Source: a virus
Strand: one strand, 5' to 3'
Virus record (IMG/VR): IMGVR_UViG_3300031132_000332
DNA: 64,000 nucleotides
A program made the position numbers and the translations under genes. Under the pieces are notes generated by a model. The model was given only the letters and a program-made list of their open reading frames with translations, was not told the origin of the DNA and did no database searches. Shown here piece by piece: positions 2,360 to 50,581 of the stretch (position 1 is the stretch's first letter; every line of letters begins with the position of its first letter).

Positions 2360-4402
2360 ATGACTACAGACATGCGAGAGACTTATCTCAAGGACGTGAA
2401 CAAGGCGAAGGAAGCTGCTAAGGCTTACTACGTTGACGGTGCTGACTCCCCGCTTACTGATGACCAGTACGACCTTCTGGTTGAGCAGCTGGCTCGAGTC
2501 GGAGAGATGTACGGCTGGAACGAGCATGTTGCTCTCGTTGAGGAAGTTGCTGCTGGTGTTGCTGGTGGAGCAGGGGATGTCAAGCACCGCTCCCGTATGC
2601 TTTCCCTTGCGAAGGCTCAGAACTCTGATGAGCTGAACAAGTTCATCGGCAAGATGGAACTGCACTCCGCGAAGCTGCTTCTGGAACCGAAGCTTGACGG
2701 TCTTGCCATCGTTGCTCTCTACCAGAAGGGCAAGCTTGTTCAGGTTGCCACCCGCGGTGACTCCCGTACAGGGCAGAACGTCACTGCCCGTGCAAAGCAG
2801 GCAACCATTGAAGGACTCCCGCAGAGCATTGCTTACGACGGTGAGCTTGAAGTTCGTGGTGAGCTGTTCATCACCCGCACCCACTTTGAAACTGCTCAGA
2901 CTTTCCGCGCTAAGCAGGGACGCACCCCGTTCAAGAACCCTCGCAACGCTGTCTCAGGAACCATCCAGTCTAAGGACGTTACCCGCCTTGAAGGTCTGAC
3001 CATGACGTTCGGTGTGTACGACTTCATTCCGTACTCTGGTGCAGAGACCGAAGAGGACTCCTACACGAAGCAGCTTCAGGATGCTGGCCAGCTTGGCTTC
3101 ATCACCGCAGCTTCCCTCATCCCGAAGCTTGACACTACTACGGTTGAAGAGCAGGTCAACGAGTTCGGTGCTATCCGAAATGGTCTGGACTTCCCGACTG
3201 ACGGTGTTGTCGTGAAGGTTGACTCTGTTAATCTTCGTAAGCAGCTTGGTAACAGTGAGCGTCATCCGTACTGGGCTATCGCTTACAAGTACGAAGCAGA
3301 AATCAAGGAGACTGTTCTTCTCGGCATCACCCGTAATGTGGGTCGTACAGGAGCTATCTCCTACGTTGCGAACTTGCAGCCTGTTGAGCTTGCTGAGACT
3401 GAGGTTGCAAAGGCCACTTTGAACAACTCTCGCTTTATTGCTGAGCTTGACCTTCGCATCGGGGACACGGTTCTTGTTCGTAAGGCGAACGAAATCATCC
3501 CTGAAATTGTGAGCGTCAACCTGCTTGCTCGTGAAGGTAAGAACCTGCCGCAGTACGTTGCTCCGACCACCTGCCCGAACTGTGGTAGTGACTTGGACAC
3601 GGAAAGCAGCATCATCTGGCGCTGCCTGAACCCTGAGTGTGCTGTTGCAACCAGCATCATCCACGCTGTCTCCCGTGACCACCTTGACATTGAAGGTCTT
3701 TCCACTTCTCTTGTTGAGCGTCTTGTGGAAGAAGAGTACATCCAGGATGCAACTGACCTGTACGGTCTGAGCGTTGCGAAGCTTGCTTCCCTCCCGATGG
3801 GTCGCATCAAGCAGGACGGTACACCTGTTGTTCTTGGTGAGACTGTTGCACAGAAGCTGTACGACAACATTCAGGGTTCCAAGAAGCAGCCGTTGAACCG
3901 CGTTCTCAGCTCCCTTGGTGTTCGATTCCTCGGACGCACATTCAGCCGTCGCTTCGCTCTGCACTTCAAGAACTTTGACAAGGCAGTGAACGCGACTGTT
4001 GAGCAGATGCAGCAGGTTGACGGCGTGAAGGATAAGGCAATCTTCATTCGTGAGGGGCTGGACACTCGTCGGAACCTTATTGAGAAGTACCGTGCAGTTG
4101 GGTTTGAGGCGTTGAACGCTGACGTTACAGCAGAAGCTACTGCTCCTGCTGCCGCAGGTTCTGCGCTTCTTGCAGGCCAGAATGTTGTCATCACTGGTGG
4201 TGTTCCTGGATACTCCCGTAACGAAGCGAAGGAACTGATTGAAGACAACGGTGGAACTGCTGGTTCCTCTGTTAGCTCCAAGACTACACTGCTGGTTGCT
4301 CCTGCGGATGAGCGTGAAACCTCCAAGGCGAAGAAGGCAGCCAGCCTCGGTGTTCGCATTGTCACTCCTGATGAGTTCCTGAGTATGCTGGGTAAGGCAT
4401 AA
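2360..4402 (+). CDS. ligA: NAD-dependent DNA ligase
   Basis: EPKLDG adenylation motif, ATRGD, EVRGE, KNPRNA, DGVVVK, AIAYKY, Zn finger CPNC...C...C, HhH region, and C-terminal BRCT (VVITG...GSSVSSKTTLLV). Confidence 0.97.
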   Translation: MTTDMRETYLKDVNKAKEAAKAYYVDGADSPLTDDQYDLLVEQLARVGEMYGWNEHVALVEEVAAGVAGGAGDVKHRSRMLSLAKAQNSDELNKFIGKMELHSAKLLLEPKLDGLAIVALYQKGKLVQVATRGDSRTGQNVTARAKQATIEGLPQSIAYDGELEVRGELFITRTHFETAQTFRAKQGRTPFKNPRNAVSGTIQSKDVTRLEGLTMTFGVYDFIPYSGAETEEDSYTKQLQDAGQLGFITAASLIPKLDTTTVEEQVNEFGAIRNGLDFPTDGVVVKVDSVNLRKQLGNSERHPYWAIAYKYEAEIKETVLLGITRNVGRTGAISYVANLQPVELAETEVAKATLNNSRFIAELDLRIGDTVLVRKANEIIPEIVSVNLLAREGKNLPQYVAPTTCPNCGSDLDTESSIIWRCLNPECAVATSIIHAVSRDHLDIEGLSTSLVERLVEEEYIQDATDLYGLSVAKLASLPMGRIKQDGTPVVLGETVAQKLYDNIQGSKKQPLNRVLSSLGVRFLGRTFSRRFALHFKNFDKAVNATVEQMQQVDGVKDKAIFIREGLDTRRNLIEKYRAVGFEALNADVTAEATAPAAAGSALLAGQNVVITGGVPGYSRNEAKELIEDNGGTAGSSVSSKTTLLVAPADERETSKAKKAASLGVRIVTPDEFLSMLGKA

Positions 4403-39745: not shown

Positions 39746-39753
39746 AATATCTC

Positions 39754-39815
39754 TTGCAAATGTCAGACCTGCATGGTACATTGATGAATGTACGAAATAT
39801 GCAGGTCTGACATTT
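39754..39815 (+). promoter_or_regulatory. sigmaA promoter with PafBC-type element inside a 17-bp inverted repeat
   Basis: TTGCAA-N17-TACATT; TGTCAG(39761-66)-N10-TACATT; arms 39758-74 and 39799-815 are perfectly complementary. Confidence 0.7.
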
Positions 39816-39831
39816 CTATTAAGGAGGAAAA

Positions 39832-40646: not shown

Positions 40647-40795
40647 TATTTTTACGACAGTAGTTCAAGGTTAACAGAACGCCTGGCTCTTGGATTTCCG
40701 GGTAGTTGGTGGCTCATATCCACCCTGTCGGCCAAACTTTTATGAAATACCGTTACATCAGAGAGAAATGCAGCGATGAGAAGGGGAGAAAAATT

Positions 40796-42205
40796 ATGTC
40801 AACTGTTATCGATGCTCGTAACCGCTTGAAGGCAAGCCTGGTCCGTCGTGAGTCCACTGTGAATGTTGCGAAAGCTATTCTTGACCTTGGCTTTCTTCCT
40901 GAGGACTCTGAGCTGCATACTAAGCTTTCTTCCCTTTCTTATCGTGGTACTTATGGTTACTACGATGCTGTCTACGATGACTATGACCGTGTTGACTCTG
41001 CTGATGACCAGTTGGAGACATTCGCTGTATTGTTCCCGAACGTCAGCATTGATGAGGCTCTGTCTGTTACCGTTGACCACCTCTCATATGTTTCAGTTCA
41101 TCAGGATTTGATTACTTCAGCTTTGTACTCACTGGGAGTACCTTCTGGTTGGAGTGCGAATGATGCTCTGCGTAAGCGTTTTTCCCTGGATTGGACTGTA
41201 GGGTCAGCATCCAGCAAGAAGGCTTTCGTCAAGCGTCTTCGTTTCTTGAACTCTTTTGAGGAGAAGCTGGGTCGTGTCTTTGACACTCTTCAGCTTCGTC
41301 ATGCTCAGATGCAGGCGAAGAGTCGCTTAGCGTACGCTGTTGACGCTGAGAAGCTTGACGATATTTCGTTGTCATTCGTTGCATACCTTGCGGCTCGTGC
41401 GAACCGTCGTTCGCTGTTCATGCTTGGTGGGCAGTCAAAGGCGTTCGATGATGTCAGTGATGCATTGCGAGACATGATTCCTGCTGATGCTAACTGGGAG
41501 CAGATTGCTTATGTTTCACCGACAATGAACGTGTTTGAGCGTCTTACTCAGGATGCTCTGGGTCGTCTCATTGGTAAGTTCCACAGTGAAATGACAGTTG
41601 CTGCAAATCAGCTGGGCCAGTTATTCCCGACCCTTCCTGTCCGCATGCGGGCTGAAATGGTAATGGTGAAAGGTGTTGATAGCTCTCGCTGGAATGCTTA
41701 CGCTGGTGCATTGAACACTATGCGCTCCGCCTGGATTTCTGCAACCATTGCTGCTGGCTTGGATTCAGTGCTGGATAAGTACTTACCTGGCAAAGCTCCT
41801 CGTTTGATGGCAGCTGACCTTGTATGGTGGGCACGTAATAACGGCCAGGAGCTCCATGAGGACACTCGCATGTTCTCTAAGCTTCCGTATCCTTGGGAAG
41901 TCATCAGCGGCGAGAAGAAGCTCAACCGTGCGAAGATTCTCAGTGTTGCTCGCAAGGCAAACGTAACTAATGTTGATGAGACAGGTTGGGTTGGTCCCCG
42001 CACTGGCGTAATCTCCGAAGTCGCTGCTGCTGAGCCTATCACTGTGCACGGCATCGTGGTTTCTGACCCGAACCTTGCTGTGATGCTTCGCAAGGCAGGA
42101 GCGTTCTCTGCTAAGAAGTTCTCTTATGTGGAGGATTTGACAGCGGAGGTCTGGGATAAGCAGGAGTCAACAATTGGTGATAAAACCTACGTGGTTGTCA
42201 ACTGA
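40796..42205 (+). CDS. Hypothetical protein (~470 aa)
   Basis: Strong codon bias like the core genes; ATG 40796 follows GGGGAG. Confidence 0.75.
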   Translation: MSTVIDARNRLKASLVRRESTVNVAKAILDLGFLPEDSELHTKLSSLSYRGTYGYYDAVYDDYDRVDSADDQLETFAVLFPNVSIDEALSVTVDHLSYVSVHQDLITSALYSLGVPSGWSANDALRKRFSLDWTVGSASSKKAFVKRLRFLNSFEEKLGRVFDTLQLRHAQMQAKSRLAYAVDAEKLDDISLSFVAYLAARANRRSLFMLGGQSKAFDDVSDALRDMIPADANWEQIAYVSPTMNVFERLTQDALGRLIGKFHSEMTVAANQLGQLFPTLPVRMRAEMVMVKGVDSSRWNAYAGALNTMRSAWISATIAAGLDSVLDKYLPGKAPRLMAADLVWWARNNGQELHEDTRMFSKLPYPWEVISGEKKLNRAKILSVARKANVTNVDETGWVGPRTGVISEVAAAEPITVHGIVVSDPNLAVMLRKAGAFSAKKFSYVEDLTAEVWDKQESTIGDKTYVVVN

Positions 42206-42281: not shown

Positions 42282-42328
42282 CTTATTTGTTAGAGAGAAA
42301 CCCCTTTTACTTCATTGGAGAGAAACCT

Positions 42329-44545
42329 GTGATTTCTGAAAATACCAAGGTTGTTGAGATTACCAGCAACGTTACTTATGCGGACACTGTTAAGTCCGAA
42401 ATTGATGCTGAGTCCATGCCTCACATCATGAATCTTCTGACGAACATTTACCAGGATGCTTATCTGGCTATTGCTCGTGAGTACATTTCCAACGCTATTG
42501 ACGCTGTTCTTGCAGCGAAGGGTGTTGAGTCTGCGTTTGGTGTCGTGTTTGAGAACCCCGTTGAGGTAGTTCTCCCGACCCGAGCGAACCCGACGCTTAT
42601 CATTCGTGACCACGGCATTGGCATGCCTCTGGATGTTCTGAAGAACGTCTACCCGCATTACGGTCGTTCTACGAAGCGCGAGACGAACGCTCAGATTGGT
42701 CGTTTCGGTATTGGCGCAAAGTCGGCTTTTACCACGGTTACGAACTTCATTGTTACCTCCATCCATGAGGGCAAGAAGAACGTTCTCATCTTTCAGAAGG
42801 ATGAGAACGGCGTTGGTGAGGCGAACTTCTTGGATGAGCAGGATACTAACGAGGCTAACGGCACCACCATCACGATGCTGCTTCCTGACCCTGACCGTCT
42901 GAACCGCGTTTTCAATGACTCCAACCTCCTGCTGGGTTTCCCCACGGGTAGCATTTCCATCAATGGCACTCTGAGTACGAACAGTGTTTACAACACTGAG
43001 ACGTTCACCCAGCTCGGGGATAAGGGCTGGGTTCTGAACAGCCTTGTTGACTGGGAGAACAACCAGCTCACTCGTCTGCGTAAGGGCTGGAATGACAAGA
43101 TTGTTCTTGTTGGTCCGATTTCCTACACCTTTGATAAGAACCTTCTGGAATTCCCTGAGTACCGTCGTGAGTTCGGTTCCATGGATGATTTCACAGTTGC
43201 AAACCTTCCGATTGGTTCTGTTGATGTCACGCCTGCTCGTGATACTCTTATCTTCTCGGATAAGACTCGTAACGCTATCATTGAGGCGACTCGCAAGCTG
43301 AAGCAGGAGCTTAACACTCATGTTGACAGCCTGTTTGATGGTGTCGGTTCTCGCCGTGAAGCGGTCACGATTGCTGATTCCATCAGGAGTGCAGGGTTCC
43401 GAGGTGAGTGGAAGTTCCAGGATGAGGTTATTCCTGATTACGAGATTCAGGCTGTTGCCGACAAGGGTAACTGGTACACTGCTGCTGGCCACAAGACTTC
43501 TGTGCGAGGCTTCTACCAGGGCCGTGCGGATAACACCGTAGTTGTCTATGGTGTTACAGATATTCATGCTGCCCGCACCCTGAACCGTTTCCGTAAGGCT
43601 TTCGAAATCAAGCACCCGAACATTACGGATTCTTTCCGTCTGGTGTACACGTCTGCACAGATTGCAGAGCTGAACCCGTGGACTGAGGATATTGCAGTTG
43701 CGACCTACTCAGTTGCTCAGTTTGAGGCTATGGGTCAGGAATTCCGTAACGAAATCAACGCTGAGAAGCGTGCACAGCGCGGAGCTGCTGTGAATGCTAA
43801 CGGTGGCGCGAATGTCAACTACGGCGCACTTCCTGTTACTGTTCTGGGTCGGAGTGGTTACTATGAGAGTGACCGTCCGAACAGCCAGAGGGAATACTCT
43901 GCTGATGTAGCGCAGCGTTATGATGCTGTTGTGTACATGCGTTTGGACGAGAATGCTCCTGCTACGCCGAGTACTCAGTTTGCTCGTATCGCTACGACGA
44001 ACGTTACTGCTTCTGCTGAGGATTACCGTAACCTGAATGCTGCTCTGCGTCTGATTCGTGAGCATTTCGTCCCTGGACGGGATGTTGCTATCGTTCGCAT
44101 TCCAAACAACACTCGTGTTGAGTCATTCCTGAACGCTGTCCCGCATGCGGTAAGTATTGATGATGCTCTGACAGTTGCAGCGGAACATGTTATTGAAAGT
44201 AACACTATTTCAGTTGAAACATTGGCTCTTCACCGTAATGTTGGCCTTCAGAATCTTCGTTGGACTGATGTTGTGAACTCTGAGGACATCAACCATGAGG
44301 GTCTGCGTGCCTGGGTGCAGGCAGCTCAGAGTTACCTGCACATCAGTTCAAATGAGCGTACGGCGATTGACAAGTTCAACCGTATGATTACAGTGGGTCG
44401 TCTTGCTCCACTGTTTGCTAATCTGAATGAGCAGGTTGAAACGTTTGAGAATTACCGCATTCCTCTGCTTTCAGAAGTGTACGGGGAGAGTTCTCTCCGT
44501 GAGGATATTACTGAGTACGTGAACTTCAAGTACCCTGCTGAGTAG
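42329..44545 (+). CDS. rIIA-like protein (GHKL/HSP90-type ATPase N-terminus)
   Basis: IYQDAYLAIAREYISNAIDA, IRDHGIGM, YGRSTKR.TN.QIGRFGIGAKSAF, NGTTITM. GTG 42329 follows GGAGAG. Confidence 0.8.
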   Translation: MISENTKVVEITSNVTYADTVKSEIDAESMPHIMNLLTNIYQDAYLAIAREYISNAIDAVLAAKGVESAFGVVFENPVEVVLPTRANPTLIIRDHGIGMPLDVLKNVYPHYGRSTKRETNAQIGRFGIGAKSAFTTVTNFIVTSIHEGKKNVLIFQKDENGVGEANFLDEQDTNEANGTTITMLLPDPDRLNRVFNDSNLLLGFPTGSISINGTLSTNSVYNTETFTQLGDKGWVLNSLVDWENNQLTRLRKGWNDKIVLVGPISYTFDKNLLEFPEYRREFGSMDDFTVANLPIGSVDVTPARDTLIFSDKTRNAIIEATRKLKQELNTHVDSLFDGVGSRREAVTIADSIRSAGFRGEWKFQDEVIPDYEIQAVADKGNWYTAAGHKTSVRGFYQGRADNTVVVYGVTDIHAARTLNRFRKAFEIKHPNITDSFRLVYTSAQIAELNPWTEDIAVATYSVAQFEAMGQEFRNEINAEKRAQRGAAVNANGGANVNYGALPVTVLGRSGYYESDRPNSQREYSADVAQRYDAVVYMRLDENAPATPSTQFARIATTNVTASAEDYRNLNAALRLIREHFVPGRDVAIVRIPNNTRVESFLNAVPHAVSIDDALTVAAEHVIESNTISVETLALHRNVGLQNLRWTDVVNSEDINHEGLRAWVQAAQSYLHISSNERTAIDKFNRMITVGRLAPLFANLNEQVETFENYRIPLLSEVYGESSLREDITEYVNFKYPAE

Positions 44546-44549
44546 TTTG

Positions 44550-44595
44550 TTGAGGGTGCGTAACACTGATAGAATCTGCTGTTACGCACCCTCAA
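44550..44595. terminator. 16-bp hairpin
   Basis: TTGAGGGTGCGTAACA / TGTTACGCACCCTCAA. Confidence 0.7.
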
Positions 44596-44613: not shown

Positions 44614-44740
44614 TTGCAAAAGTTAGAGTCATCTGGTAAGCTCTATTCATAAGCAATACAGTAAATAGCTCTAAAAACCTTGAAAAATCAAGGAAAATCA
44701 CCTATCAGACTTGACATGAAGCATGAAAATCTGGTAGAAT
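44614..44740 (+). promoter_or_regulatory. Two tandem sigmaA promoters
   Basis: TTGCAA-N17-TAAGCT (44614-42) and TTGACA-N18-TAGAAT (44711-40), both with extended TG. Confidence 0.65.
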
Positions 44741-44791
44741 AGATTACAAGTTACACACGTTATCAAACACTTATACAAGGAGAGAAACACC

Positions 44792-46171
44792 ATGGCTCTT
44801 GAATTCTCACGCGCCGAGTCTGCCACTCGCGGTTCCAGCATCATCCTGTTCTACCCGGATGGTCCGTTCTTCGTTGATGGTACTCACGAGAAGTACGCTG
44901 ACATTGTTCGCCTCATTGAGGCTTCCGCTGATGAGGACGCAATTCGCCGCCTCACCCACCCTGATGAGTTCGCCCTTGGCGGCGACGCTCTCACCCGCCT
45001 TGCTACTGTTCTCGGTGTTGTTTCCGAGGCTGACGTTGATTTCGTTTACCGTCGCGGCACTGGTTCTGAGGTTCACGTTTCTACCACCATCGTTCGCCTG
45101 GTTGACCACCAGAGCGGCGAGACCATTCTTGTTGCTGACCCTGATGGGGATGGCACGCTTACCCACTACCGTTCTTCTTTCGTGAGTGAGCTTGTTATTG
45201 ACGAGGGCCTTGCTGCTGATGTTTTCGGCTCTGACAACGCAGACGACACGGACGAGTACGAGGATGATGTTCTTGATGCTGAGGACGAGGATGCCGTTCT
45301 TGCTGATGTGGCTCGTATGTTTGCTGCTGCTTCGGTTCTTCAGACTCGGACCATCCCTGCTGTCGGTGACACCACGCAGGATGCTTTCCAGATTGTCCGT
45401 GATGCTGCTGCGAACGGTGACGAGGTTGCTGTCAACTTCAATTACACCACCGCTGAGGGCGAGGCTCGCCGCGTTGTGGACTTCACCGTGAACGAGGTTG
45501 TTGCCACCACTGGTGCCAATGTTCATCTGTTCATTGGTCGTCGCGCTGAGGATGACGCTGTTCGCTCCTATCGTACTGACCGCATCCAGAACCTTGTGGT
45601 TGTTGGTAACCAGGCTGCGGGCGCTGTTCAGGCTGACCCGAACACTGGCGTTGTTGCTGATGCTGCGGTTGACACTGATGCAGAGCAGGTTGTTCGTGAT
45701 GCTGTTGCAAACGGTGATGACATTGTTATCAACTTCAACTACACCACTGTTGACGGTGAGCCGCGAACGCTGACGAACTTCAAGCCGTCCGCTATTCGTC
45801 CGACTGCAACTCCTGGCATTGACCTGCTCATTGGTATTCGTTCCGAGGACGATGAGCAGCGCACCTACCGTCTTGACCGCGTGACGGACCTTGAGGTTGT
45901 GAACGGTGACCAGGCTGTTCAGGCTGGCCCTGAGGTTCACGAGACGCTGCTTGCGGCTCTTGACAACGATGGTCCTGTCTTCGTGACCTTCTCCTACACC
46001 AGTGCACAGGGTAACACCCGCACTGTTCGTAACGCTGAGGTCAGCGACGTGGTTTACTCTCGTAACCACGCAGGCAAGTACCTGCTCCTGGCTCGTCGTG
46101 AGCGCGATGCTGAGGACAAGCAGTACCGTACCGACCGCATTGAGAACCTCGTTTTCAACCAGGCCGACTGA
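44792..46171 (+). CDS. Protein with possible rIIB-like N-terminus, acidic linker and three tandem WYL-like domains
   Basis: Three repeats of V.(V/I)(N/T)F.YT...G..R...RSYRTDRI / RTYRLDRV / KQYRTDRI. N-terminal FFVDGTHEKYADIV recalls rIIB starts; no HTH visible. Confidence 0.7.
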   Translation: MALEFSRAESATRGSSIILFYPDGPFFVDGTHEKYADIVRLIEASADEDAIRRLTHPDEFALGGDALTRLATVLGVVSEADVDFVYRRGTGSEVHVSTTIVRLVDHQSGETILVADPDGDGTLTHYRSSFVSELVIDEGLAADVFGSDNADDTDEYEDDVLDAEDEDAVLADVARMFAAASVLQTRTIPAVGDTTQDAFQIVRDAAANGDEVAVNFNYTTAEGEARRVVDFTVNEVVATTGANVHLFIGRRAEDDAVRSYRTDRIQNLVVVGNQAAGAVQADPNTGVVADAAVDTDAEQVVRDAVANGDDIVINFNYTTVDGEPRTLTNFKPSAIRPTATPGIDLLIGIRSEDDEQRTYRLDRVTDLEVVNGDQAVQAGPEVHETLLAALDNDGPVFVTFSYTSAQGNTRTVRNAEVSDVVYSRNHAGKYLLLARRERDAEDKQYRTDRIENLVFNQAD

Positions 46172-46177
46172 CACACT

Positions 46178-46280
46178 TCCCTGCCGCTCCTAATTCTCTC
46201 TCCTTTCTCTACAACAGGAGCGGCAGGGACACAGCCCTCCTACCATCCATATTTCTCTCCTTGTGGATGGTAGGAGGGCT
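46178..46280. other. Twin GC-rich hairpins with TCTCTCCTT loops
   Basis: Stems 46178-91/46216-29 (14 bp) and 46233-49/46264-80 (17 bp); both loops contain TCTCTCCTT. Confidence 0.6.
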
Positions 46281-46308
46281 TCTTCGCGTCTTCCGATAGT
46301 TGTGTATT

Positions 46309-48240
46309 ATGGCAACACCACGACGCAAACCAACACGATCCACAACAGGGGCGAAGAAAGCTGCCCCGAAAAAGAAAGTCGTTGTCAAACCAACCAAAGC
46401 GAAATCCGTTCCAGGAAGCAAAGGTGGTTTCACGGCTCTTATGCGTGAAGCAGAAAACAAAGGAAAGCCTCAAACCGCTGTAAAGCAAGCTGACCCGAAC
46501 TCTTTTGCTTCCATCATCAAAGCAATGCGCGCCATCTATGGTGATAAGCGTGTGCACATCCTTGAAGTTCCTTACATGGAACGCGGAGTTGCTCAGGCTA
46601 TGGGGGCTGAGTATGTGGAACGAATCAAGAAATACGTTTCAGCAGGAGATTTGCTCCCTCTGCCACTTCATCCATATAAGTCAGAAGATTTCTCATACAA
46701 CCGTTGGATGGAAGACCAAATCAACGGTCGTATTCAAACTCCTGAAAAGCCAAAAGGTGGCTACTTCACTCCCCGACCTCACCAGCAGGAAGCTATAGAT
46801 GCTATCAAACGGGCAGCAGCGGCTGGCTGGCGAGGTTTCATAGAGGCTGACGCTACTGGTCTGGGTAAAACTATTTCAGGGCTTGTAGGGGCTTCTGAGG
46901 CGGCAAGCATTAAAGGCTTCACTCGGCAGAAGAAAGCAAAGATGCTTATCATCTCACCAAATCGCGCACTTCCTCACTGGAGGAACACTATTCGGCATTT
47001 GCAGTTGGATAATCTTCGTATTCAAGTCATCAACTATGAGCAGTATAAGAAGCTTCTCACGGTTCCAAGCTCAGCTGCAACTGTCAAGAAAGCTAAAACG
47101 AAGAACAAACACATCACGGAGTCAGGAAAACCGTTCATTCAGTGGGACTTCATCATTGCTGATGAATCGCATAAAATCAAGAACTATACATCTCAACGCA
47201 CTAAGGTGTTTGAACGTGTCGCTCGTTATGCGGAGACAGCAGATAAAGCCCCATTCATTATTTGGCAGAGCGCAACTCTTGGACAGAACCCGTTAGAGCT
47301 CGCCTACTTAGCTCCATTGTTTAGTCAGGTCGCAAAACGCAGCCTGACGATGGAAACCTTCCCGGCATGGCTGCAAGAAGTTGGATTCCATGTTCAGAAG
47401 AAAGGTGATACTTGGCAGTGGGTCAAACCGGCGAACCCACAAGATGCAATTCCACGTGAACAGCAACGTCAAGATGTCCAACGTCTGGCAGAAATCCTGT
47501 TCGCTCCCAAAGCTCCTTCCATTCGGAGAAAGCCAGAAGACATTGCTGGTTGGCCAGAAGTCAACAAGATTGCTCTTCCTATTCAGTTAGACCCTGACTC
47601 AGCTCAGCAATACAACAAGCTGTGGACTGAGTTCCGTAAGTCGATGCACCTGAAAGTCAAAGGCAAAAACCCGAAATCGGTACTTGCAGAGCAGCTTCGG
47701 TTTGCTCAGAAAGCTTCATTGCTACGGGTGCCTCAGACTGTTGACAACATTGTTGATTTGTTGGAGAACGGATATCAAGTTGCTGTCAGTGTACGGTTCA
47801 TCGAAACACTGGAAGCAATCAAGAGTTCCTTGAAGAAGTTAGGATTGGACGCTTCTGAATTCTCAGGCCGTGATTTCATCAACACTGAGCATGAGAGAAT
47901 GCTGTTCCAGAAAGGTGACAACAAAGTTATTTTGTTCACTGTGGAAGAAGCAGTTTCATTCCATGCAAAAGAACAGCTCCCTGATGGCACAATAGCTTCA
48001 CCATTCCCACGAGCCCTGCTTATTCATGACATGCGTTACTCAGCTCTTTCAATGACACAAATCGTTGGAAGAACGCATAGAGACGGTCAGGCTGCTAATG
48101 CGTACTTCATGTATTCAGAAGGGACAGTTGAGGAAGCCATGCTGAACATCATGCTCAACAAAATGCAGAACATGTCAGTGCTTTCTGGTGATGAAGAAGA
48201 AGATACTCTGATGGAATTGTTGGAGAATTTACCTGAGTGA
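46309..48240 (+). CDS. Superfamily II (SNF2-like) helicase with basic N-terminus
   Basis: PRPHQQEAI, DATGLGKT, IIADESH, QIVGRTHR; DUF5710-like LEVPYMERGVAQAMGA. Confidence 0.85.
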   Translation: MATPRRKPTRSTTGAKKAAPKKKVVVKPTKAKSVPGSKGGFTALMREAENKGKPQTAVKQADPNSFASIIKAMRAIYGDKRVHILEVPYMERGVAQAMGAEYVERIKKYVSAGDLLPLPLHPYKSEDFSYNRWMEDQINGRIQTPEKPKGGYFTPRPHQQEAIDAIKRAAAAGWRGFIEADATGLGKTISGLVGASEAASIKGFTRQKKAKMLIISPNRALPHWRNTIRHLQLDNLRIQVINYEQYKKLLTVPSSAATVKKAKTKNKHITESGKPFIQWDFIIADESHKIKNYTSQRTKVFERVARYAETADKAPFIIWQSATLGQNPLELAYLAPLFSQVAKRSLTMETFPAWLQEVGFHVQKKGDTWQWVKPANPQDAIPREQQRQDVQRLAEILFAPKAPSIRRKPEDIAGWPEVNKIALPIQLDPDSAQQYNKLWTEFRKSMHLKVKGKNPKSVLAEQLRFAQKASLLRVPQTVDNIVDLLENGYQVAVSVRFIETLEAIKSSLKKLGLDASEFSGRDFINTEHERMLFQKGDNKVILFTVEEAVSFHAKEQLPDGTIASPFPRALLIHDMRYSALSMTQIVGRTHRDGQAANAYFMYSEGTVEEAMLNIMLNKMQNMSVLSGDEEEDTLMELLENLPE

Positions 48241-49756: not shown

Positions 49757-50581
49757 TTAACGTCCTACATAGTGGTCTTTGACAGCAGTCCACGACATAG
49801 GGATAATTTCAACATCCAGACTACTCAGTTCTAATAGCGCAAGATTGTTGTATGAACCATCCATATCCAGCCCAATGCTATGAAGCGTGTATCCTTCAAC
49901 ACCATCATGAAGATAGCTGGTCTTATCTGCATGCACATGATAATGACCATGCATAAACAAGTCAGGTTTTACGCCGTCAACTGCTTGACGCATCATGGCG
50001 CGAGATTCATTGGCGTATGCAATCTCTGAGCTGAACCACATATCATTATCAACACGATGTGACCCGAACAAATCCACACCCGTAGGACTATCATGAGCAA
50101 GCATGATGTCAGCATGCCCGCCTTGCACAGTGTCAAAAACGTTCTGCAGCGTGATGCTTTCCGCTTTCCACCAGCTTAGATTTTCAATACGTCCCTGCTT
50201 ATCAATGCTGTTCGCTCCGCCAAGTGAAACAAAGGAACGGTCATTCCACGTCCACCGTGTGCCACGTTCAGCGACAAGGATATTTGGATACTGCTTGTTA
50301 TAACGCCAGCCAGGAAAATGCGGATGTGGCTGTAATGCGCTTACCTGCACATAGTCTTCGTGATTTCCAAGAGTGACATACAACAGCTGCTCATTTGCAG
50401 CTAAACGCTTATTCGTTTTGTACAGATACTTCTGTCCATTGTTTCCAGGCCAGAAACCGAAGTCGCCTAGCTGCAAGATATGCTTGACTCCAAGCTCAGC
50501 AAAACGGTTGATAGCAATTCCTGCCCAACCTGTGTTGCCATGCCAATCGCCGGCGACTCCTACAATATCAAACGCGTTCAT
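49757..50581 (-). CDS. Calcineurin-like metallophosphoesterase
   Basis: GDWHG, LGDFG, LGNHE, AHD, HGHYH motifs in order. Confidence 0.9.
   Translation of the reverse strand: MNAFDIVGVAGDWHGNTGWAGIAINRFAELGVKHILQLGDFGFWPGNNGQKYLYKTNKRLAANEQLLYVTLGNHEDYVQVSALQPHPHFPGWRYNKQYPNILVAERGTRWTWNDRSFVSLGGANSIDKQGRIENLSWWKAESITLQNVFDTVQGGHADIMLAHDSPTGVDLFGSHRVDNDMWFSSEIAYANESRAMMRQAVDGVKPDLFMHGHYHVHADKTSYLHDGVEGYTLHSIGLDMDGSYNNLALLELSSLDVEIIPMSWTAVKDHYVGR

Follow-up and report, generated by a model that had tools for sequence, protein, structure and literature searches.

A rare rIIB-derived protein without a helix–turn–helix carries four tandem WYL units in the rIIB position of a viral replicon

The rIIA and rIIB genes are among the oldest known phage genes, and rIIB together with rIIA protects against Rex-type exclusion. 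Just how the two proteins prevent Rex-type abortive infection has yet to be explained (PMC10312443, PMC13716836). Among regulators with WYL domains, DriD contacts single-stranded DNA (ssDNA) through Y168, R176, R178, Y192, R204, W206 and R207 (PMC9186387), mutation of the R-x-x-R pair (R211/R214) of PafB abolishes ssDNA binding, Y196 being likewise essential (PMC11804915), and other WYL proteins bind c-di-GMP (PMC11880434). Here we analysed a stretch of 64,000 nucleotides from the IMG/VR virus record IMGVR_UViG_3300031132_000332 (hereafter, the window), in which the gene directly downstream of an rIIA-like gene encodes a protein of 459 amino acids (aa), termed P0001 (other P numbers denote its relatives, and L numbers the loci of these relatives). 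We find that it is an rIIB-derived protein with four WYL units and without a helix–turn–helix (HTH), that it occupies the rIIB slot, and that it is both conserved and rare (Table 1). The literature on rIIB with WYL domains, on WYL domains with rIIA and on phage WYL anti-defence proteins does not describe this architecture.

The repeats are true WYL domains, judged by profiles and by modelled fold. Pfam WYL (PF13280) matched three stretches of the 459-aa protein (E = 6.7e-12, 45.7 bits against a cut-off of 21.8), and a hidden Markov model (HMM) specific to the family resolved four repeats of ~72–76 aa, the first of which (repeat 0) is degenerate and reads THYRSSFV in place of the R.YR.DR motif. 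An earlier note, made from the letters of the window, had described three tandem repeats of ~60 aa; the tandem WYL repeats stand, whereas their number and length had to be revised, and the motifs that it listed (RSYRTDRI, RTYRLDRV and KQYRTDRI) are present as claimed. When a profile built from 36 repeats was compared with Protein Data Bank (PDB) sequences, the best eight matches were all WYL proteins (DriD, PafBC and the PafBC–RNA polymerase complex); phmmer searches of PDB sequences with the whole protein and the rIIB domain as queries returned zero matches. An AlphaFold2 model of a single unit (repeat 1; predicted local distance difference test (pLDDT) score, 95.4) consists of a helix and a five-stranded Sm/SH3-like barrel. 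With this model as the query, the top 21 Foldseek matches in the PDB were the WYL domains of PafBC, BrxR, DriD and CapW (template-modelling (TM) scores of 0.53–0.71), and the top seven matches of an exhaustive VIA-align search were WYL proteins (Z of 7.8–8.4, all others at or below 7.5). Searches of the AlphaFold DB and of a viral structure library also agreed on the WYL fold, which holds the top ranks in four libraries. The proposed kinship of the repeats with the PafB and DriD WYL domains was thus borne out by the Foldseek, VIA-align and PDB profile rankings alike. An ESM Atlas feature search gave scores below 0.85, which we treat as leads only.

The whole-protein model resembles beads on a string (predicted TM score of 0.26), with confident parts at aa 1–55 and repeats 1–3 and a low-confidence part at aa 60–194. 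At E ≤ 1, Pfam returned nothing besides WYL on the 459-aa protein: it detected no HTH, in line with the earlier note, and no WCX or dimerization domain, and the chain stops two residues past the last repeat. The acidic linker that had been noted is likewise there, at about aa 140–200, with the composition given in Table 1.

The N-terminal ~60 aa, proposed earlier to resemble the start of rIIB, are indeed rIIB-like. An HMM built only from full-length rIIB–WYL relatives matched aa 1–57 with 20 bits (E = 1e-4; the best of 3000 shuffles reached 8.2) and matched no other open reading frame (ORF) of the window, and hhalign aligned the N terminus with these relatives start to start (probability of 96.9%, E = 1.9e-10). 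This piece was modelled as three strands and two (or three) short helices (pLDDT of 72–80). The homology is visible to profile methods only: when the rIIB-like proteins of actinophages were compared directly by BLASTP, the match at the corresponding N-terminal position fell short of significance (E = 0.5). The PHROG rIIB profile had no match on the 459-aa protein at E ≤ 0.01, and no rIIB profile was significant.

The core of rIIB, in turn, has been lost. In a colinear alignment, P0001 has rIIB residues 1–57, skips the next ~210 and resumes at the first repeat. The core domain is recognized by the motifs PDGDFYxYKGV and VKxNPRDVVSVP, and the best score of an rIIB-core HMM in the 64-kb window and the 21-kb L003 locus was 4.8 bits, compared with 247–391 bits in full-length loci. 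When metagenomes were scanned with the rIIB core, the short-form contig was not among the results; its sample may lie outside the collection, and the scan therefore has no bearing on a core encoded separately. rIIA is full-length in the short-form lineages. In a tree of the repeats, repeat 0 of the window clustered with the units that open the array in full-length relatives (support of 98/89), and its last repeat (repeat 3) with the units that close it in P0023 and P0021 (support of 96/93). First and last repeats are thus positional orthologs of those in the full-length forms, which places the origin of the array before the core was lost. Read from these alignments and trees, the ~210-aa rIIB core is excised in frame in the lineage of the window, with the N-terminal subdomain and the array kept. 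The earlier suggestion that the WYL array replaces the rIIB C terminus has to be abandoned, as relatives bear the array after a complete rIIB domain and the core was deleted later. Repeats 1 and 2 are 78% identical over their first 89 nt, at a spacing of 297 nt, which suggests that one extra repeat unit arose through duplication.

The architecture, which was unfamiliar to the author of the earlier note, is very rare. Only 14 clusters at 50% identity emerged from 1.84 billion representatives, which were searched by word index and, exhaustively, with HMMER. The short form is found in four close homologs (459–462 aa, 78–98% identical), with three separate 90%-identity clusters at 78–81%. Nearly all other relatives (484–640 aa) have a complete ~270-aa rIIB domain (phrog_609, E = 1e-48 to 2e-52; PF26926, Phage_T4_rIIB), followed by 1–4 of the same WYL repeats. 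Of 80 metagenomic rIIB-core loci, 74 were without the repeats; the six that carry them are the closest ones, with cores that are 54% or more identical, and this restricts the fusion to a single narrow clade. No relative of the 459-aa protein was found in isolated phage genomes (megablast and tblastn), and none was confirmed in GTDB species genomes and IMG/VR contigs. Three very large metagenome contigs were observed to carry rIIB-core genes: on L090 (788,683 bp), the rIIB core is followed by three WYL repeats; on L098 (Ga0153956_1000001, 1,102,766 bp), a gene related to the family has a 214-aa tail without detectable repeats; and L112 (436,870 bp) holds another related gene.

Relative to the ortholog in L003 (81% identical), the ratio of non-synonymous to synonymous substitution rates (dN/dS) was 0.24 for the whole gene, 0.14 for the N-terminal piece, 0.12–0.14 for repeats 1–3 and 0.28 for repeat 0. 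Linkers reached 0.35–0.47, and the acidic linker (0.47) was the least constrained part. By these ratios, the short form is functional and under purifying selection. The loss of the rIIB core and of the repeat 0 motif could also be taken as signs of a decaying, functionless rIIB remnant; we find this scarcely credible, given the intact reading frame, a dN/dS of 0.12–0.14 in the domains, a short form shared by four homologs down to 78% identity, and a promoter, Shine–Dalgarno sequence and upstream palindrome that are more conserved than synonymous sites. The dN/dS values and the conservation of the short form likewise disfavour a pseudogene.

The position of the gene is that of rIIB. Directly upstream on the same strand, as the earlier note had recognized, lies an rIIA-like GHKL ATPase gene, the product of which matches phrog_612 RIIA (E = 1.8e-57) and Pfam HATPase_c_3 (E = 5e-10). 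Among phages, the best relatives of this gene are rIIA-like genes from Microbacterium and Rhodococcus phages, each followed by a plain rIIB-like gene. A survey of the genes downstream of rIIA showed that one order is kept in five loci including the window: a module of rIIA-like gene, rIIB-(WYL)n gene and SNF2 helicase gene, with a phosphoesterase gene nearby, is seen in the window, L003 (858-kb contig, Ga0540651_0000001 of JGI 3300055092), L004 (856 kb), L086 and L087/L088 (696 kb), with the full-length members lying on uncultured replicons of 0.70–0.86 Mb. The SNF2 helicase gene has the same downstream position in L003, L004, L086 and L087, and the phosphoesterase gene is also present in L003, L086 and L087. 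Within the phrog_609 profile (1055 positions), rIIA matches positions 38–174 and rIIB positions 822–1051; some phrog_609 members are probably natural rIIA–rIIB fusions, which argues that both proteins act together. Directly upstream of the rIIA-like gene, a 499-aa ORF (40706–42205, + strand) without a Pfam or PHROG match has a 469-aa counterpart in the same place in L003, and this ORF may belong to the module.

What the array binds can be approached through its conserved residues. Among the polar residues of the repeats, conservation is highest at exactly the Arg and Tyr positions with which DriD and PafB contact their ligand. When the repeat consensus was mapped onto DriD via an HMMER alignment and compared with the published DriD contacts, Y168 (the Tyr of F.Y), R178 (GE.R) and R204 and R207 (R-x-Y-R) were kept, and W206 was present as Tyr. 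The R-x-[FWY]-R pair reads RSYR in repeat 1, RTYR in repeat 2 and, with a conservative change, KQYR in repeat 3, and is lost in repeat 0. In view of these contact residues and of the WYL proteins that bind c-di-GMP, a phosphate-bearing ligand is plausible for the repeats.

We favour, with a probability of about 0.5, the reading that the protein is a component of the rII module, in which the WYL array would bind single-stranded nucleic acid or a nucleotide ligand and the rIIB N terminus would serve as a tether. The ligand of each intact WYL unit would bear phosphate; it would most likely be single-stranded nucleic acid over a short length, or possibly a nucleotide messenger, bound through the conserved Tyr, the Arg of GE.R and the R-x-Y-R residues, and the tandem array would make this binding multivalent. 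The rIIB N-terminal piece would tie the array to the usual partner of the rIIB N terminus, most plausibly the rIIA ATPase, so that the module could link rII counter-defence to a nucleic-acid signal of the replication or damage type, which it would recognize or sequester. The array, rather than the rIIB core, would then be the part that is indispensable to this lineage.

Several observations count against this proposal. Two of the seven DriD contacts, R176 and Y192, are lost, R176 being Glu in the repeats. The tyrosine of the WYL motif is Thr, His and Asp in repeats 0–2 and remains Tyr only in repeat 3 (KYL), and in relatives this column is mostly Glu or Asp; DriD itself has NYL, and the WYL motif is hence known to be degenerate. 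The protein is very acidic (85 D/E versus 39 K/R, net charge of about −46, zero Trp and zero Cys). Sm/Tudor-like barrels serve as protein-binding modules too, and the triple-Tudor Spindlins appear alongside PafBC among the fold matches of the whole-protein model. In DriD, PafBC and CapW, ssDNA is flanked by the WYL domain on one side and the WCX/dimer domain on the other (PMC9186387, PMC11804915), and the second of these is absent from the 459-aa protein. Furthermore, the core search covered the window and the L003 locus, and a separate rIIB core may lie elsewhere on the replicon.

Part of this evidence would suit a protein–protein adaptor, in which WYL-derived Sm/Tudor-like barrels would have lost nucleic-acid binding and would form a multivalent scaffold, one that might, for example, bring proteins of the host or the replicon into the rII complex. 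The WYL tyrosine and the R176 equivalent are gone in most repeats, the whole model is similar both to Spindlins and to PafBC, acidic residues strongly predominate over basic ones and, in the VIA-align search with the single-repeat model, generic Sm/Hfq folds scored just ~1 Z unit below WYL domains. We nevertheless regard an adaptor as unlikely, since the Pfam WYL score is far over the threshold, the best-conserved polar residues coincide with the ligand Arg and Tyr of DriD and PafB, and WYL proteins lead the fold rankings in all four libraries.

WYL repeats of the same family also occur outside the array. A single-unit, 68-aa ORF lies about 4.7 kb upstream of the WYL-array gene (Table 1); in the corresponding position, L003 has one ortholog of this mini-ORF and L004 has two. 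On the 5.7-kb contig L085, the adjacent genes at 2–322, 612–2936 and 3079–4107 all bear the same WYL-like repeat, one of them encoding 774 aa with at least seven units and without an rIIB part, and no rIIA gene is visible on this short contig. A protein of this description, P0028, has at least seven repeats and no rIIB, and is encoded on a small contig beside two further repeat-bearing genes. A search of a structure library showed that small WYL-only proteins are common in phages; to our knowledge, none of these stand-alone proteins has a known function. The region upstream of the 68-aa ORF (39750–39831) contains TGTCAGAC-N8-TACATT, which resembles a PafBC-type box.

The array and the nearby single-WYL proteins could, alternatively, act as a free sponge that soaks up the ssDNA or nucleotide signal sensed by host WYL-gated regulators of the PafBC, CapW or BrxR type without involving rIIA, and damage or defence responses would then stay silent while the replicon replicates. 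Such a role would be in keeping with the ligand-face arginines conserved across three tandem units, with the absence of an output domain of any sort in Pfam, with the single-unit ORFs kept upstream in three loci, with the rIIB-less P0028 and with the frequency of small WYL-only proteins in phages. The nearest phage relatives of the rIIA gene, moreover, infect Actinobacteria, which use PafBC (PMC11804915). We consider a free sponge rather unlikely, because the array is covalently joined to rIIB in nearly all relatives and always adjoins rIIA, and because the rIIB N-terminal piece is strongly constrained (dN/dS of 0.14), which would be unexpected for a free sponge. The high negative net charge also speaks against it, as does the fact that the WYL units stand without the WCX part of the ssDNA pocket known from the regulators (PMC9186387, PMC11804915). 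A dominant-negative decoy of PafBC-, DriD- or CapW-type regulators, raised in the earlier note, is unlikely as well, given that the WCX/dimer domain, with which these regulators dimerize and make their ssDNA pocket complete (PMC9186387, PMC11804915), is absent here.

The acidic character of the protein invites a different explanation, namely an acidic DNA mimic or anti-restriction protein in which the linker and the surface, rich in D/E, would pass for DNA, with the barrels as no more than a frame. The net charge of about −46 and the 60-aa linker with 17 D/E are compatible with this, and the relatives are acidic too (net charge of −13 to −51). The linker after repeat 0 is also found in P0021, P0023, P0025 and P0029. 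It is missing from P0008 and P0016, however, it is the least constrained part of the gene and is predicted to be disordered, and conservation is centred on the barrels and the N terminus, which makes DNA mimicry very improbable.

The loss of the rIIB core may itself have a bearing on immunity. T6 RIIB triggers a CARD/gasdermin defence, and phages escape it by loss of RIIB (PMC10312443). By analogy, shedding the core while keeping the array might, speculatively, be a route of escape from an rIIB-sensing defence. A reading that extends this analogy, and that we hold to be doubtful, is that the array itself would be the counter-defence effector, a multivalent sponge for the ssDNA or nucleotide signal read by host WYL-gated regulators such as PafBC, working alongside the single-WYL protein expressed from a damage promoter, with the loss of the rIIB core as an escape from rIIB-detecting immunity. 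If this were true, these giant replicons would, through their rII module, offer the first molecular handle on the ligands of rII proteins. Iyer et al. considered rIIB as a possible transcription factor (PMC7824862); were this the case, the full-length rIIB–WYL proteins would parallel HTH–WYL regulators.

The gene appears to have its own regulatory region (Table 1), the final ~150 nt of which are ~95% identical to L003, promoter and palindrome included. Two strong sigmaA promoters had been claimed upstream of the gene: one is strong, with 11 of 12 consensus matches and a predicted transcript 5′ end at ~44747, and is unchanged in the orthologous L003 locus, whereas the other is a weak candidate, below the threshold of the promoter scan, the −35 element of which is kept in L003. 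The palindrome is 100% kept in L003 despite a dS of 0.46 at the synonymous sites of the gene, and may be an operator for some regulator. Compared with L003, the hairpin behind the rIIA stop codon has compensatory changes at two pairs (CG/CG to AA/TT) and is probably a terminator between the rIIA-like gene and the WYL-array gene. The PafBC-box pattern TGTCGGTG-N8-TANNNT was not found in the 246 nt upstream of the gene, and its window-wide occurrence (17 observed versus 14.9 expected) is at chance level. An antisense ORF of 455 aa (44807–46174, − strand) was rejected as a shadow ORF, having neither family nor homolog support; a second antisense ORF, of 441 aa (42290–43615, − strand), lies opposite the rIIA-like gene and is without family support. 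Both look like shadow ORFs that arise from the codon usage of the sense genes.

The window combines genes of the jumbo-phage type (rIIA, R2K ATP-grasp, RNR, LigA, SNF2 and YqaJ) with Rhs, FtsK and DUF285 genes, and had no tRNA or Rfam match over its 64 kb. Its NAD-dependent DNA ligase (2360–4402, + strand) is at most 36% identical to any ligase of 185,579 species-representative genomes, and the replicon is therefore distant from every sequenced bacterium.

Table 1. Positions of the WYL-array gene, its parts, its regulatory sites and neighbouring genes in the window
Feature	Position	Strand	Basis or details
Single-unit WYL-repeat protein, 68 aa	39832–40038	+	Same repeat family, HMM E = 1e-20
rIIA-like gene, 757 aa	42272–44545	+	N-terminal GHKL ATPase, long variable C-terminal part
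Hairpin, 16-nt perfect arms (inverted repeat I2)	44550–44595	+	Immediately 3′ of the rIIA stop codon
Weak promoter candidate, TTGCAA-17-TAAGCT	44614–44642	+	Read from the sequence; below promoter-scan threshold
Perfect palindrome CCTTGA-AAAA-TCAAGG, possible operator	44678–44693	.	A-run flanks, ~18 nt upstream of the −35 element
Strong sigma-70/sigmaA-type promoter, TTGACA-18-TGnTAGAAT	44711–44740	+	11/12 consensus matches, extended −10
Shine–Dalgarno sequence AAGGAG	44777–44782	+	9 nt 5′ of ATG
Studied gene, rIIB-derived protein with WYL array, 459 aa	44792–46171	+	ATG-started ORF
rIIB N-terminal subdomain, aa 1–57	44792–44962	+	Profile tests, alignments, AlphaFold2 model
Repeat 0, degenerate WYL-like unit, aa 66–138	44987–45205	+	Family HMM E = 4e-8
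Acidic linker, aa 139–197	45206–45382	+	17 D/E versus 2 K/R; predicted disordered, pLDDT < 50
WYL repeat 1 (RSYRTDRI), aa 198–272	45383–45607	+	Family HMM E = 8e-28
WYL repeat 2 (RTYRLDRV), aa 297–371	45680–45904	+	Family HMM E = 3e-30
WYL repeat 3 (KQYRTDRI), aa 382–457	45935–46162	+	Family HMM E = 3e-25
Pair of consecutive perfect hairpins with arms of 14 and 17 nt (I4, I1); terminator region	46178–46280	+	3′ of the stop codon
SNF2-family helicase gene	46300–48240	+	Pfam SNF2-rel_dom, ResIII
Calcineurin-like phosphoesterase gene	49757–50581	−	Pfam Metallophos

The fusion of rIIB with WYL repeats, and a lineage that has only the N-terminal peg and the array, hint at the type of signal that the rII module handles. 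We found no earlier case of four chained WYL domains without an output domain, and the protein widens the uses of WYL domains past transcription factors, helicases and Cas accessory proteins.

Compared with the rIIB proteins of T4-like phages and actinophages (PF26926, PHROG 609; for example, Microbacterium phage Cece gp214 and Rhodococcus phage Peregrin gp117), the gene has the same slot directly after the gene of an rIIA-like GHKL ATPase, its product is homologous to the rIIB N-terminal subdomain over ~57 residues from its start and the nearest relatives of P0001 have the complete rIIB domain. P0001 itself, however, is without the ~210-aa core and has four WYL-type barrels, whereas the actinophage rIIB-like proteins are without repeats. 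With the WYL domains of PafBC, DriD, CapW and BrxR, the repeats share the Pfam family and the fold of a helix and a five-stranded barrel, and they keep the F.Y Tyr, the GE.R Arg and the R-x-aromatic-R-x-D-R signature of PafBC and DriD (PMC9186387, PMC11804915). They differ from HTH–WYL–WCX regulators in that P0001 has no HTH, WCX or output domain, carries its four WYL units in tandem on one chain, retains the WYL tyrosine in the last repeat only and has Glu at the R176 equivalent; its gene, moreover, is derived from or fused to rIIB rather than located beside a defence operon. The small phage WYL proteins (76–135 aa; from uncultured Caudovirales, Vibrio phage Vp_R1 and Rhizobium phage RHph_TM30) are likewise barrels without an HTH, and the 68-aa ORF of the window is of the same kind. 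These are single-unit proteins, whereas P0001 chains four units on an rIIB N terminus within the rII module.

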